DNA of 12,213 bases from Gemmatimonadales bacterium (GTDB lineage: Bacteria > Gemmatimonadota > Gemmatimonadetes > Gemmatimonadales > GWC2-71-9), in assembly GCA_038321865.1 (NCBI GenBank), contig JBBQFH010000055.1:1-12213 (forward strand). The letters are read 5' to 3'. The notes under the pieces were generated by a model that saw nothing but the letters and a program-made list of their open reading frames with translations, had not been told where the DNA came from and did no database searches. A program made the translations under genes and the position numbers. Shown here in pieces: positions 4,639-10,181 of the stretch (position 1 is its first letter; each line of letters begins with the position of its first letter).

Positions 4639-4868
4639 GAGCTGGCACGAGCGCCCAACTCCCGCCCGCCGAGGTCGGGGAGAGGGCTGCACCGCTGCGC
4701 ATCCGCGGGCGTTGCGGGTCGTGCCATCGGCAGCGCAAGGACCCGGCAGACCGGTGGATCACGTTCGAGGTGTGGGACGACCTGACGCTCCCATGGGCCG
4801 AGCGTCGCTCGGTGTGCGGCGTGGCGTGCCTGCTGGCAGCGATCGGCGCTCAGGGGGTGGATTCCTGA
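4635..4868 (+). CDS. Small putative Zn-finger protein (77 aa)
   Basis: GTGA overlap; CGSC...CGVAC (CxxC-xn-CxxxC, treble-clef-like spacing); stop overlaps the next ATG. Confidence 0.65.
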   Translation: MRAGTSAQLPPAEVGERAAPLRIRGRCGSCHRQRKDPADRWITFEVWDDLTLPWAERRSVCGVACLLAAIGAQGVDS

Positions 4869-5314
4869 TGGCCCGGAGTCTCCTGAGCCCGAGCGGCATC
4901 TGTCCCAAGTGCGGCGCTCGCGTGGAGCGCAGCCGCGTGCTCGGCCGCCCGGTCGACGTGGAGGGCGTGGGCGGGCCGCACTGCTGCCGCCTCCCCGTCC
5001 CGTCGCTGCTGGTGCCCGTGGAGTGCACCTGCGGGGCGCGCGTCGAGCGCGACGAATCGGACCTGTCGAAATGGGAGCCGGACGGATCCCCGCACGACTG
5101 CAGCGTGCGGCCCGTCGTTCACGTTGGGGCGCGGGGGGACGAGGGCCCCCAGTCCGCGCGTGCGCGCGCGGCTGGGAACCCGGACGAGTCCCGGCCCGCG
5201 GCGACGCGGGCGAAAGCAACAACGGCGGCCCCGGGGTCTGTTGCGGCCGCCGCCCCCCGCGCACACCCCGCCAGTAAGCCTCTCGATCTGCTGCCCAGAG
5301 TGTTGGGTGGATGA
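4868..5314 (+). CDS. Protein with two tandem Cys/His Zn-binding repeats and a low-complexity tail (148 aa)
   Basis: TGATG overlap; CPKCGARVER...GPHCC and CTCGARVER...SPHDC; Ala/Pro-rich tail; stop overlaps the helicase ATG. Confidence 0.68.
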   Translation: MARSLLSPSGICPKCGARVERSRVLGRPVDVEGVGGPHCCRLPVPSLLVPVECTCGARVERDESDLSKWEPDGSPHDCSVRPVVHVGARGDEGPQSARARAAGNPDESRPAATRAKATTAAPGSVAAAAPRAHPASKPLDLLPRVLGG

Positions 5315-6711
5315 GTGCGCCGACGTTCACGCGAGAGGGCGACGAGTACCACTTCGACTTCGAGGATGCCGGCGTGCGGCTGACGATCGAGCGGATCGAC
5401 GAATCCGACGGGCGCCTCTCCGGCCATGTGTGGGCGCGGAGCATCCACCCGGATCGGCAGGGGTTGCTGTACTGGGGCTGGCACGGCCTGGACAGCCCGC
5501 GCAGCCGGGCCGACCTGGCGAAGGAGATCGCGGCGCGGACGCCGGCGGTGTCGCTGGAGGCGTGGCGCGACATGGTGCTGCTGGCCTGCATCGAGGCGGG
5601 CAAGGCCTATCGCGGAGCGACCGAGCACGTGGAGTTGGCCGACGTGCCTCGCCGGGTGGGGTTGCGCCTGCTGTTCCCGGGAATCCCGCTCGGGGAGACG
5701 ACGACGATCTTCGCCGACGGCGAGACCGGCAAGAGCACGCTCGGCCGCCTCCTCGCGCTCGCCGTCGTCACCGGCAACCCGATGGGGGGCTTCACGCCGT
5801 CGCTCCAGGGGCCGGTGATGTTCCTGGACTACGAGACGAACCGCTTCGAATACGCCGAGGACATGCTCGCGTTGTGCCGCGGGATGGGGCTCTCGGAGAT
5901 CCCGCGCGGGCTGCACTACTACGAGATGCAGCGCCCGCTCGCGCACGAGATCCCCTTCCTGCGCGCGGAGCTGGACCGCACGGGAGCGGTCTTCGTGTTC
6001 CTGGACAGCATCGTGGCGGCGCTCAGCGGGGCGGCGAAGGACGACGATGCCGCCAAGGCGCTCATGAATGGGCTGCGCGCGCTCGGGCCGGCCACCAGGC
6101 TGGCGGCCACGCACATCACCAAGGAGGCCGCGCTGCCGGACGGGATCCGCAAGGTGCCGGCGACGGCGTTCGGCTCGCGCTTCTTCCATGCGTACTCGCG
6201 CTCCCAATTCCAGATGGAGAAGACGGACGAGCACGACGACACGGTGAATCTGGTGCTGCTGCACAAGAAGATCAACCGCGGGCGGAAGCTCACGCCGATC
6301 GGCCTGGAGCTGACGTTCCAGGAGGGCGAGCACCCCGCGATCGTGTTCCGCCGTACGTCGCCGGCGGCCGCGGTGCTCACGCACGGCACCAATCCGGAGC
6401 GGATCCGCGAGGCGCTCCGCCGCGGCGAGGTGGACACCAAGAAACTCGAGGAGGTCACGGGTCTACCGGCGAAGACGCTCAGCACGACGATCGGGCGGAT
6501 GCCCGACGTGGAGCGGGTCAATCGGATGGACGGCAGCGGCCGGGGCATCGTCGCGGTGTACCGGCTGAAGGAAGTCCAACACGTTGGACATACGTTGGAC
6601 TTTTCTCGCCGCAATGTTGGACTTTCGGGGTCGCCAGTGAACGGTACGGGCCGCGAGGCCGGCGACGATACGGGCCCCGAGAGCTTCGAGGAGCAGGAGG
6701 CGGTGTTCTAG
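5311..6711 (+). CDS. RecA-fold AAA_25 / RepA-like replicative helicase-ATPase with C-terminal winged HTH (466 aa)
   Basis: Walker A ADGETGKS (5713-5736), MFLDYE (catalytic Glu strand), Walker B FVFLDS, ATHITK, AFGS and KINRG motifs; C-terminal IREALRRGEVDTKKLEEVTGLPAKTLSTTIGRM is HTH-like. Confidence 0.85.
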   Translation: MSAPTFTREGDEYHFDFEDAGVRLTIERIDESDGRLSGHVWARSIHPDRQGLLYWGWHGLDSPRSRADLAKEIAARTPAVSLEAWRDMVLLACIEAGKAYRGATEHVELADVPRRVGLRLLFPGIPLGETTTIFADGETGKSTLGRLLALAVVTGNPMGGFTPSLQGPVMFLDYETNRFEYAEDMLALCRGMGLSEIPRGLHYYEMQRPLAHEIPFLRAELDRTGAVFVFLDSIVAALSGAAKDDDAAKALMNGLRALGPATRLAATHITKEAALPDGIRKVPATAFGSRFFHAYSRSQFQMEKTDEHDDTVNLVLLHKKINRGRKLTPIGLELTFQEGEHPAIVFRRTSPAAAVLTHGTNPERIREALRRGEVDTKKLEEVTGLPAKTLSTTIGRMPDVERVNRMDGSGRGIVAVYRLKEVQHVGHTLDFSRRNVGLSGSPVNGTGREAGDDTGPESFEEQEAVF

Positions 6712-6800
6712 TGGTCGCAGAAGTCCAACACGCCGGAGCCACGACCAGGAGCGGGGAAGCCCAACAGGAAGTCCAACAAAAGCCCAACGTGTTGGACTTC
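6571..6800. repeat. Nine GYCCAAC iteron-like repeats in two clusters forming a 32-bp imperfect inverted repeat; candidate replication origin
   Basis: Cores GTCCAAC/GCCCAAC on + at 6574, 6723, 6759, 6771, 6782 and GTTGGAC (reverse) at 6583, 6594, 6616, 6791. Segment 6571-6602 is the reverse complement of 6769-6800 at 28 of 32 positions. Confidence 0.85.
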
Positions 6801-7289
6801 TCTGGTTCGCCCCCCACACCCCCCACTCCTGAGTTACGACTCTCGTCACCCCCCTCCGTAGGTTCCCCCCACGCCGTTTCGGGTGGCGGTGAGGGGGAGG
6901 GAGGGCAGGCTTTCCTTGGGGCTGCGCCCCAAACCCCCGACCAGCTCGACGGCCTTCTGGTGAGCTTGGACCTGCAGGGCGTCTCGCTGCGGGCCGATGG
7001 GGAGCTCCTGCGAGCTCGCCCGCAGCCCAATCGGCAGCTCGACTCGGAGACGGCTGACCTGGTCCGTGCGCACAAAGCCGGCCTCATGGCGTGGGTCGGA
7101 ATGGGATTGGCCGAGCGCACCCGGCGACTCGTGGCCGCGTTCGAGGCGGTGCTGCCGACGGTCGGTCGCGAGGTGCAGGAGCTCTACAAGATTCGCGGCC
7201 GGTCGCATCCCGAGGCGCTGGCGGCCGAACGCGGCTTCCTGGTGGCCCTGCGGCGCTTGGAGCAGCTGTACGGAGGGGAGGGAGCATGA
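6711..7289 (+). CDS. Replication-associated protein with TubC_N-like small domain (192 aa if started at GTG 6711)
   Basis: GTG overlaps the helicase TAG, GGAGG at 6696-6700; LLVSLDLQGVSLRADGELLRARP...LVRAHKAGLMAWV resembles the TubC N-terminal docking-like domain often seen beside phage primase/helicase genes. The N-terminal third is low complexity and overlaps the repeat region, so the start is uncertain. Confidence 0.65.
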   Translation: MVAEVQHAGATTRSGEAQQEVQQKPNVLDFSGSPPTPPTPELRLSSPPSVGSPHAVSGGGEGEGGQAFLGAAPQTPDQLDGLLVSLDLQGVSLRADGELLRARPQPNRQLDSETADLVRAHKAGLMAWVGMGLAERTRRLVAAFEAVLPTVGREVQELYKIRGRSHPEALAAERGFLVALRRLEQLYGGEGA

Positions 7290-7741
7290 CGGCAGTCCTG
7301 ACCGACGGGTCCGAGGCGCGGAAGGCGGCGCAGCCATTCCTGATGGCGCAGCACGCGCGACTGTCGAACGTTCGCATCGTGTGGGCGTTCACGGACGCCA
7401 AGCCCCCGAAGAAGTTCACCTGCAAGGCGTTCGCGAGCATCACGATCCTGACCCCGTTGCACCGGTACCTCTCGGCCGGTGGCGGCGGCGAGGAGGAGGC
7501 AGCGGACGTGGCGATCGTGCTGAATCGTGTGTTGTGGTACGCCTGCACACCCGTCCAGCAGCGGTGGGTCCTGGATGACGCGCTCGAGCACATCTGGCTC
7601 GACGAGGATGGCGCGCTCAGCTTGCGGGAGCACGACATCGAGGCGTTCAGCGGGGTCCTGGAGCGTCAGGGCATCCCGTTCGACTCGATGCGCCATGCGG
7701 CTCGCGTCATCCGCCAGCTCGGACAGGAGGCGATGGGATGA
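7286..7741 (+). CDS. Putative phage metallopeptidase-family protein, active site degenerate (151 aa)
   Basis: ATGA overlap; family-like motifs HARLSNVRIVWAF, DVAIVLNRVLW and LREHDIEAFSGVLERQG, but DDALEH stands where DHELxH is expected. Confidence 0.7.
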   Translation: MTAVLTDGSEARKAAQPFLMAQHARLSNVRIVWAFTDAKPPKKFTCKAFASITILTPLHRYLSAGGGGEEEAADVAIVLNRVLWYACTPVQQRWVLDDALEHIWLDEDGALSLREHDIEAFSGVLERQGIPFDSMRHAARVIRQLGQEAMG

Positions 7742-7968
7742 ACGTGGCGATCGACGGCGGCTGGCCCGAGCTCGATCGGGCGAACGACAACACGCTCGCG
7801 TGGCTCGCGAACCGGCTCACGGATGCCGAGCGCGGCGCGACCTGGCCGTCGCGGGATGCGGCGACGCGCGCCATCCTCGACGCGCACGAGGGGATGCCGG
7901 AGAAGGACCCGCGCAGCGACCTGCTGCACCGCTTCTTCCGCGGCGGGAACTGGCGGCCGGACGCATGA
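7738..7968 (+). CDS. Hypothetical phage protein (76 aa)
   Basis: ATGA overlaps at both ends; GGAGG upstream. Confidence 0.65.
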   Translation: MNVAIDGGWPELDRANDNTLAWLANRLTDAERGATWPSRDAATRAILDAHEGMPEKDPRSDLLHRFFRGGNWRPDA

Positions 7969-8522
7969 CCGACCTGCTCTTTCTGGATGTGGAGACAGGG
8001 GGACTTTCCCCGGCCACCGACGCGCTGCTCGAGGTGGGGCTGGTGCACTGGCGGGACGGCGCGGTGCTGGACACGCTGAACTTGAGCATCCGCTCCGACG
8101 GGCGCCGGGTGGATCCCGAGGCGCTGCGCGTCAACGGCATCGACGTCGCGGCGCACGATCGCACGGCGCGCCACCCGATCCATGCGGCCGCGTACCTGTG
8201 CACCTGGATCGGGACGCGCTGGCCGGGGATGCGTCCCGACCCCGCCGGCCACAACGTGCCGTTCGACCTGGGCTTCCTGCAGGTCCTGCTGGGTCGGGAG
8301 CGCTACGGCCGGGTGCTCGGACGGCGCGCGGTGGACACCTGCGCGATCCTCCGCTTCGTGTGCGAGGCGGAGCTCGTGACGCTGCCGCGGCACAGCCTGG
8401 ACATGGCCTGCGCGCACTTCGGGATCCGCCGCGAGCGTGCCCACCGCGCGCTCGACGATGCGCTCGCCGCGGCCGAGCTCTACGGCCATCTGCTGGCCGT
8501 GGTGCGGGGGAGGGCGGCGTGA
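7965..8522 (+). CDS. DEDDh 3'-5' exonuclease (DnaQ/epsilon-like, 185 aa)
   Basis: ExoI FLDVETGGL, ExoII GHNVPFDLGFL, VDT, ExoIII AHRALDDA; ATGA overlap at 7965. Confidence 0.92.
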   Translation: MTDLLFLDVETGGLSPATDALLEVGLVHWRDGAVLDTLNLSIRSDGRRVDPEALRVNGIDVAAHDRTARHPIHAAAYLCTWIGTRWPGMRPDPAGHNVPFDLGFLQVLLGRERYGRVLGRRAVDTCAILRFVCEAELVTLPRHSLDMACAHFGIRRERAHRALDDALAAAELYGHLLAVVRGRAA

Positions 8523-8883: not shown

Positions 8884-9573
8884 ATGCAATCTGAGTCTAC
8901 CCCCGCGCCTCTCCCATGCGCCCACTGCGGCGCCGTGTTCACGAAGCGCAAACCCTCTCAGCGGCGGCGTTTCTGCTCACACCGATGTGCCGATAGCCAT
9001 CGGACAGTGGTGGCGCGTGAGTCATTCTGGTCCAAAGTTGCGAAGTCGGCAGATCCGGACGGGTGCTGGCTTTGGACTGGTCAGCTTGGCGCAGGCGGCT
9101 ATGGGAAGCTCACGCTTGGCGGCGAGCACCTTCTGGCTCACCGTCTTTCCTACGCACGAGCAGCCGGACCGATTCCCGATGGCTTGTGGGCACTGCATCA
9201 CTGCCCGTCGGGGGATAACCCTTCATGCGTTCGCAACGACACCAAAAGCACCTACGTTCTTGATGGTGTTGAGCATCCTCTGTGTGGCCACTTGTGGCTC
9301 GGGACGAACGCCGACAACAACCGAGACATGCTGCTGAAAGGGCGTCAGGCCGCTGGAGATCGTAGCGGGTCGAGGCTGCATCCCGAATCGCGCAAGGGTC
9401 CACGAGGCGAACTGCAAGGCGCTTCTAAGCTGACCTGGGAAGCAGCCCGGGAAATCCGCCGTCTCTACGCGGCCGGCGGAATGAGTCAACGCGCTCTTGC
9501 CTCTCAATTCGGTGTCACGCAATCGACCCTCGGCAGCTTGCTGCGTGGGGAGACGTGGCAGGAACAGTCATGA
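8884..9573 (+). CDS. Free-standing HNH (HNH_3-type) homing endonuclease with N-terminal Zn finger and C-terminal HTH (229 aa)
   Basis: CAHCG...FCSHRC; FWSKV, CWLWTG, GYG, AHRLSY, LHHC..DNPSCV, HLWLGTNADNNRDM; SKLT...IRRLY...SQRALASQFGVTQSTLGSLLRGETW. RBS GAAGGAG; visibly more A/T-ending codons than the flanking genes. Alternative in-frame TTG start at 8767. Confidence 0.92.
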   Translation: MQSESTPAPLPCAHCGAVFTKRKPSQRRRFCSHRCADSHRTVVARESFWSKVAKSADPDGCWLWTGQLGAGGYGKLTLGGEHLLAHRLSYARAAGPIPDGLWALHHCPSGDNPSCVRNDTKSTYVLDGVEHPLCGHLWLGTNADNNRDMLLKGRQAAGDRSGSRLHPESRKGPRGELQGASKLTWEAAREIRRLYAAGGMSQRALASQFGVTQSTLGSLLRGETWQEQS

Positions 9574-10181
9574 CGGGGGCGAAGCAGAGAATACCGCTGG
9601 CTCAGGCTGAGTACCTGGCCGCCGAACTGGTGGCGCTGCTGTCGCCTGCGTGCGTCAGGATCGAAGTGGCAGGGAGCATTCGGCGACGCAAAGCCACGGT
9701 CGGCGACGTCGAACTGGTGATGGTGCCCAAGCTGGAAGCTGAGATGGACATGTTCGGCCTGAAGCCTGGTGGCAGCCGCAACTTGCTGGACGAATTGGCC
9801 GACGCACTGTTCGTCAGCGGCACGCTCGAGGCGCGCCAGGACATCAACGGCCGTCCGCGCTGGGGCAGTCGCTACAAGGCCGCCATGTACCGCGGCTTCG
9901 CAGTTGACCTGTTCAGCGTGCTGCAGCCCGCGCAGTGGGGCACGATCTTCTTGATTCGTACGGGCTCGGCGAAATTCTCGCACCGGCTGGTCACGCAGCG
10001 GCGCCAGGGCGGCTGCATGCCCGCCTGGATGCAGGAGCGTGACGGCGCGCTGTGGAGCCACGGCGAGATGGTCCCCACCCCGGAAGAGACCGATGTGTTC
10101 GCTGCTCTCGGGTTGCCGTTCGTGCCGCCGGAGCAGCGCACCGAGTCGTGGCGCCCCGTGGGCATGGGGGCGTTCTCGTGA
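9570..10181 (+). CDS. polX: Minimal family-X DNA polymerase (palm + thumb only, 203 aa)
   Basis: EVAGSIRRRKATVGDVELV, third acidic residue in VDLF, IRTGS, and thumb motif EETDVFAALGLPFVPPEQR; no N-terminal lyase/HhH domain and no PHP domain. Confidence 0.88.
   Translation: MTGAKQRIPLAQAEYLAAELVALLSPACVRIEVAGSIRRRKATVGDVELVMVPKLEAEMDMFGLKPGGSRNLLDELADALFVSGTLEARQDINGRPRWGSRYKAAMYRGFAVDLFSVLQPAQWGTIFLIRTGSAKFSHRLVTQRRQGGCMPAWMQERDGALWSHGEMVPTPEETDVFAALGLPFVPPEQRTESWRPVGMGAFS

Follow-up and report, generated by a model that had tools for sequence, protein, structure and literature searches.

Phage context and the iteron array

The locus described here raises the question of what is done by a dense group of short, mirror-symmetric repeats (iterons) straddling the stop codon of a helicase gene, and of which protein reads them. 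The window, by which we mean the whole stretch of DNA analysed, is a complete contig of 12,213 nt from a 3.4-Mb assembly. Its genes encode a Gp3-like protein, an AAA_25 ATPase, a phage metallopeptidase, an exonuclease, HNH, PolX-like, ASCH and VRR-NUC proteins, and it reads as the early and replication region of a phage. A further contig (C64), encoding a GH25 lysozyme-like gene, joins upstream via a 61-nt overlap. No integrase was found in the ORFs scanned, no primase was identified in the window, and no RNA holder was listed. As set out below, the array is probably the replication origin of this phage, predicted to be bound by the winged helix of the RepA-like helicase encoded upstream, which would load itself without a separate initiator.

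A word scan of the window locates nine GYCCAAC sites (6574+, 6583-, 6594-, 6616-, 6723+, 6759+, 6771+, 6782+ and 6791-), reproducing every coordinate, strand and spacing reported in the first-pass annotation. The window as a whole contains 12 copies of the word against 3.2 ± 1.7 expected, and none of 200 shuffles reached 12. The mirror relationship proposed between 6571-6602 and 6769-6800, at 28 of 32 positions, is confirmed: the arms of 32 nt are 88% complementary and 166 nt apart. The impression that no comparable cluster exists elsewhere extends to the 3.4-Mb genome, where GYCCAAC occurs 552 times and every other 230-bp stretch holds at most three copies. The full site approximates to AAG(T/C)CCAAC(A/G); of the 18 genome-wide copies of the longer word AAGYCCAAC, eight lie inside the array.

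Table 1. Features of the array and its surroundings, in window coordinates
Feature	Position	Strand	Remarks
Predicted initiator-helicase gene, 466 aa	5311..6711	+	Pfam AAA_25, E 1.9e-16; AlphaFold2 model
C-terminal winged helix coding region	6361..6570	+	Winged-helix topology in model
Recognition helix, residues 387-395	6469-6495	+	T392 codon at 6484-6486
Iteron cluster A (+ - - -)	6571..6625		47% GC; within non-conserved helicase tail
Spacer between clusters A and B	6626..6717		71% GC, not AT-rich; contains helicase stop codon
Iteron cluster B (+ + + + -)	6718..6803		58% GC; 6769-6800 is the inverted copy of 6571-6602
C-rich then G-rich element	6804..6905		Immediately 3' of array; conserved at DNA level in closest relative, L103 (alignment)
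Downstream ORF 6711, 192 aa	6711..7289	+	First ~80 codons cover cluster B and the C/G-rich element

Cluster A begins exactly where the conserved helicase protein ends, and the array runs through both the tail of the helicase frame (residues 421-466) and the frame of ORF 6711. The latter has a GTG start with AGGAGG upstream, and its second half gives a weak TubC_N-like match (E 0.069, below the cut-off); no homologue was found among shorter proteins or in the 138 homologous loci considered below. That the array lies in two coding frames had been pointed out previously. The overlap is real, but it is incidental, because most homologous arrays follow the stop codon: in 44 of 56 the helicase ORF contains no more than one site. 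Between 6400 and 7100 no sigma-70-like promoter and no terminator were found; the array has no Rfam match, its strand folds well as DNA (z -4.2), and the sign of the GC skew of the window does not change there. The spacer does not provide an AT-rich centre, and the palindrome of a C run, a TA core and a G run seen in many relatives (see below) is also absent from the window. The C-rich/G-rich element is likely to be part of the origin. Shortly beyond it, at 6918-6940, stands a short hairpin-like word, GGGGCTGCGCCCC followed by AAACCCCC, with a single copy in the genome.

In one public run, contigs agree letter for letter with 4796-6623 and 6771-8161; they possibly come from the source sample, in which case they are not independent. 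Among the run pieces listed there is no joint and none spans the whole array, continuity across 6624-6770 resting on the assembly and on L103.

The helicase upstream of the array

The AlphaFold2 model of the helicase (mean pLDDT 90.5, below 50 in the tail) comprises an N-terminal domain (residues 1-101), a RecA/RepA-type ATPase core (approximately 103-349), a winged helix (351-420) and a disordered tail (421-466), which over cluster A is not conserved. The core finds as its top structural match RSF1010 RepA (1g8y; Z 22.2, rmsd 2.8, 218 residues aligned) and is positively identified as of RecA fold and predicted to be of RepA-like superfamily 4 (SF4) type, with RadA and DnaB near RepA in the same search (Z 20-22) and RadA less than one Z unit from the top. 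Residues K141, D232, H268, R297 and N322 are invariant in 83 sequences, and we take them to represent Walker A, Walker B and SF4-type motifs. A sequence search of the PDB with the helicase gave weak P-loop matches only. HTH, MarR or ArsR-type Pfam matches are found in a minority of the 83 homologues (HTH_20, for example, in six).

The N-terminal domain, a β-sheet with two helices encoded by 5311-5625, is conserved throughout the family and confidently modelled (pLDDT 96 for residues 1-105) and has no Pfam match. No clear fold match was obtained for it with Foldseek (none at E 0.001), VIA (best Z 7.3) or Atlas (top 0.81), which does not make the fold new.

At E ≤1e-30 the helicase family has 165 representatives. 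Most homologues stop a few residues past the winged helix (median 27 nt among loci with arrays). Among the 18 longer homologues scanned, 12 contain a primase-type domain (Prim-Pol, AEP, DUF3854 or Toprim) and three a DnaB N-terminal domain, which points to a replicative role for the helicase. One homologue of 787 aa (P0074) has an internal LAGLIDADG domain, possibly an intein. Cultured phages and plasmids yielded no full-length relative (no match for P0001, partial core matches only for P0090 and P0015), nor did 60 related genomes, and viral scans queried with the protein of the window, or with the clade closest to it, gave no match. A single one of 400 genomes of the phylum has a strong match (L003), with no obvious array there.

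Recurrence of arrays behind homologous helicases

The recurrence of the array was assessed in two sets of homologous loci. Of the 169 loci in the first, the window among them, 161 contain a closed helicase ORF; filtering by length and score left 149, and a cut at <80% identity left 107. A mixed-orientation array of 6-mers is present at the winged-helix end in 56 of these 107 (window included), compared with 62 of 2,071 background blocks. The second set of 80 further loci contributed 31 new ones, 17 with arrays, against 15 of 496 background blocks. Pooled, 73 of 138 non-redundant loci have an array directly behind the winged helix, in the same place as in the window, compared with about 3% of background blocks. 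Scan blocks placed at the winged-helix end give the signal in approximately 50% of loci; none of the other offsets listed gives it in more than 7%. By the threshold used, 65 of the 138 loci lack an array, and 54 have neither an array nor the palindrome.

The words themselves vary by locus (GTAACA, GCAACA, CGGACA, GGGACA, GTGACA, GTGGCA and others) and share an ACA/TGT end. Of 56 arrays, 44 open with a forward site and 37 close with a reverse one. Distances between sites of the same orientation peak near 8-13, 20-24 and 33-36 bp across the 56 arrays, a period of about 11 bp, in line with the helical phasing suggested for the window; the period is quoted without a permutation p-value because the permutation treats dependent pairs as independent. 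An open plus-strand frame over 240 nt is present in only 24 of 73 arrays. In array loci the first 150 bp past the winged helix lie 7-8 GC points below the locus mean. Of 36 array loci, 28 have a greater GC skew downstream than upstream (p 0.004), compared with 13 of 22 array-less loci; the test is weak because array-negative loci have a T/A skew shift of similar strength.

Elements rich in C and G runs accompany many arrays. A C4-N1-6-C4 word follows 22 of 73 arrays; it occurs in only 1 of the 44 loci that are array-negative, and in 63 of 671 background blocks. A palindrome consisting of a C run, a TA core and a G run is found 3' of the gene in 34 of 138 loci; it is present in 23 of the 73 loci with arrays and in 7 of 44 that are clearly array-negative, compared with 8 of 1,057 background blocks. 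It is a candidate minimal melting or cruciform site. Perfect examples, with a core of TTTA, TAAA or TATA type, lie up to 450 nt past the winged helix in L077, L087, L114 and L127. The palindrome is often flanked by iterons and is present also where there are just two or three of them (L082 and L084).

Some loci depart from the common arrangement. In ten array-negative loci (L026, L027, L031, L049, L053, L058, L059, L060, L075 and L091) a conserved ORF of about 130-140 aa with a Cys-rich end overlaps the helicase stop codon; it may stand in for the cis element or signal another mode of initiation. One clade with neither array nor palindrome has such a small ORF right on the stop codon. One clade (L015, L016, L020, L021 and L040) has extra motif copies within the winged-helix coding sequence.

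Concerted changes and covariation with the recognition helix

The closest relative, L103, has a helicase 50% identical to that of the window and was excluded from the locus counts, as its sequence runs on for only some 200 nt past the stop codon. Its array has the layout of the window, + - - in the tail and + + + + - after the stop, and is likewise followed by a C-rich/G-rich element, but its site is AAGT-GCGG-CA where that of the window is AAGT-CCAA-CA, the core having changed from CCAA to GCGG at all sites at once. Across cluster B the DNA of the two is conserved but the reading frame is not, being shifted. Similarly, L152 and L178, with helicases 56% identical, share a layout in which eight copies of GGGACA in one correspond to seven of GCAACA in the other, with zero cross-occurrence.

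Whether the repeat word covaries with the winged helix, a check proposed along with the origin, could be answered across the family. With motifs registered independently of the proteins, the top three of 2,331 column pairs in the first set fall in the recognition helix (column 392 twice, and 396). In the pooled data, registered by a profile method that misplaces a few words (L019, L040, L101 and L108), column 392 with motif base 3 ranks first of 1,557 pairs (z 7.7). G stands at base 3 in 21 of 28 loci with R, K or Q at residue 392 but in 4 of 44 with other residues, a count of 72 loci since one of the 73 was dropped for an undefined base. With a tree built without the winged helix, independent pairs favour this rule 8:0 (median p 0.008), and both the window (T, A) and L103 (K, G) obey it. 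The 17 held-out arrays give 2 of 3 against 3 of 14 (p 0.19), not significant alone, and the pooled p-values are not independent because the rule itself came out of the first data set. The rule is broken in 11 of 72 loci (for example L089, L114, L177, L067, L191, L231 and L254), in some via mis-registered motifs. Two further rules, which pair R391 with a G at the first base and N388 with a C at the second, failed the independent-pairs test. The notion that the motif merely copies the codons of the recognition helix is rejected, the motif being present in those codons in 0 of 73 loci.

Comparison with known systems

The lambdoid origin, to which the array had at first been likened, has its iterons within the gene for an O-type initiator and employs a separate helicase or loader, whereas the gene here encodes the ATPase/helicase itself. 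The analogy is also not supported in that most of the 56 arrays lie essentially outside the helicase ORF, and that the tail over cluster A is disordered and not conserved.

The staphylococcal pathogenicity islands (SaPIs) offer a closer model. According to PMC9371898, SaPI iterons are placed immediately downstream of rep and are read by the winged helix of Rep. In the same paper and PMC7581432, SaPI/PICI Rep and SCCmec Cch2 have a C-terminal winged helix, as predicted in the window; just past the helicase gene lie 6-12 short iterons, oppositely oriented on the two sides; and the word differs between elements, as it does in the family described here. SaPI Reps are, however, AAA+ enzymes (SF3 or MCM-related) that move 3' to 5', in contrast to the RecA/RepA SF4-type core of the window helicase, and the SaPI origin is AT-rich at the centre, in contrast to the GC-rich spacer of the window and to the short TA core between C and G runs of many relatives. 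The window thus has mirror iterons and, in the model, the winged helix, and has neither an AT-rich centre nor an AAA+ motor; because the motor is of RecA fold and the centre is not AT-rich, we do not count it as a SaPI Rep/ori system. The design of a helicase reading its own iterons is known from staphylococcal islands, and the helicase class here is different.

Phage P4 alpha combines an SF3/D5 helicase and a primase in one protein, in contrast to the window helicase, and its sites are not at the end of the gene. The P4 type-1 iteron word, presumably TGTTCACC, has the TGT/ACA end in common with the window's family. RSF1010 (IncQ) employs a separate initiator, RepC, to handle its iterons; the match of the window helicase to RSF1010 RepA is limited to residues 103-349. 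Pfam AAA_25 is common to this RepA, to RepA-like SF4 phage helicases such as BFK20 gp43 and to the window helicase, among whose relatives are AEP fusions. According to PMC4889955, P4 alpha binds its origin via a C-terminal winged helix, as is predicted here for the window helicase; the role of helix 3 is treated in PMC2777425. In the passages of PMC4889955 consulted, winged helices are named for SF3, where they bind origins, and for SF6-like DUF3987, and none is named for SF4. The literature searched, which covers few subscription papers, yielded no description of the window helicase family or of SF4 helicases reading iterons.

Alternative explanations

The array could be a regulatory or parking site for the winged helix, serving autoregulation, copy-number titration or as a crr-like accessory element, with strand opening elsewhere. 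The lack of an AT-rich centre in the window would fit such a role, as would the overlap of cluster B with the start of ORF 6711 and the motif copies inside the winged-helix coding sequence of some clades, and covariation indicates a binding partner, not replication. Nevertheless, the array sits at the 3' end of a gene, not at a promoter, and none of sigma-70 type was seen nearby, nor a terminator; the depressed GC content of the 150 bp after the winged helix in array loci and the agreement in position with tested origins also argue for an origin, and we consider a purely regulatory role improbable. That the array merely adjoins the helicase gene and serves another protein, such as a terminase, a recombinase or the products of ORFs 3668 or 6711, is very unlikely. 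Although the perfect C-run/TTTA/G-run type palindrome of 34 of the 138 loci could suit a nuclease or packaging enzyme, the neighbouring genes vary freely, and tblastn with ORFs 3668, 4862, 6711 and 7286 gave no match in the 138 loci, so that the 6711 and 3668 proteins are not supported as binders; the top covarying column, moreover, is within the recognition helix of the helicase.

It is equally hard to credit that the repeats are a by-product of low-complexity coding for a disordered linker, of an RNA hairpin or of faulty assembly. Both clusters do overlap open frames in the window, the strand folds well, and no listed contig spans the whole array. But the sites are on both strands, homologous arrays lie for the most part outside helicase ORFs and without long open plus-strand frames, L103 keeps the DNA and not the frame over cluster B, and Rfam gives no match. 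An assembly artefact is argued against because L103, from an unrelated assembly, has the same layout, and recurrence across the family already largely refutes this explanation. What survives of the initial idea of a helicase-read origin is thus its core, supported by the 73 arrays and by the covariation of word and helix, without the lambdoid analogy or the alternative binders.

Proposed mechanism and its significance

For the preferred reading, an origin read by the helicase, the comparative evidence lets us infer that the winged helix binds the array. The recognition helix would read the iteron word, with residue 392 selecting base 3 of a (G/C)N(A/G)ACA-like hexamer, small residues favouring A and R, K or Q favouring G. 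This residue-to-base code is partial and is the least certain part of the picture. The mirror-symmetric sites, spaced by about 11 bp, may gather helicase subunits on either side. Then, if SaPI Rep is taken as a model, the duplex might open and two helicase rings load in opposite directions, to be followed by a primase, which in relatives is fused or adjacent.

More broadly, these loci may represent a widespread family of uncultured phages in which a self-loading SF4 (RepA/DnaB-type) helicase is its own initiator, winged helix and word switching together under a residue-to-base code (A or G according to residue 392) to give dozens of natural orthogonal helicase-origin pairs, with many members opening at a very short TA core held between runs of C and of G and not at an AT-rich tract; for this wider proposal we see the chances as evenly balanced. 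Ring helicases of the bacterial (SF4) type generally depend on an initiator, and often on a loader as well, while the self-loading helicases tested are, to our knowledge, AAA+ enzymes. If the reading is right, an SF4 helicase able to find and open its own origin would show how such a ring gets onto duplex DNA unaided. The 73 natural pairs of protein and origin, including close relatives in which every site has changed together, bring two questions within direct experimental reach: the coordinated change of specificity in an initiator and its many iteron copies, and the reading of bases by a winged helix. The array pattern also offers a way of locating origins in uncultured phage genomes.

Other observations

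The distant AAA_25 gene of L008 (a 609-aa ORF) has eight copies of ACTTGC, in both orientations, at its 3' end, which suggests that the design extends beyond the family of the window helicase. Elsewhere in the window, an HNH/HTH endonuclease gene at 8890-9573 lies in a stretch of reduced GC content (about 62%) with a contig depth below that of its flanks in run X1, and is possibly a recent or variable insertion. Beside it, at 9555-10181, is a stand-alone PolX-like gene (DNA polymerase beta palm and thumb) in a phage.
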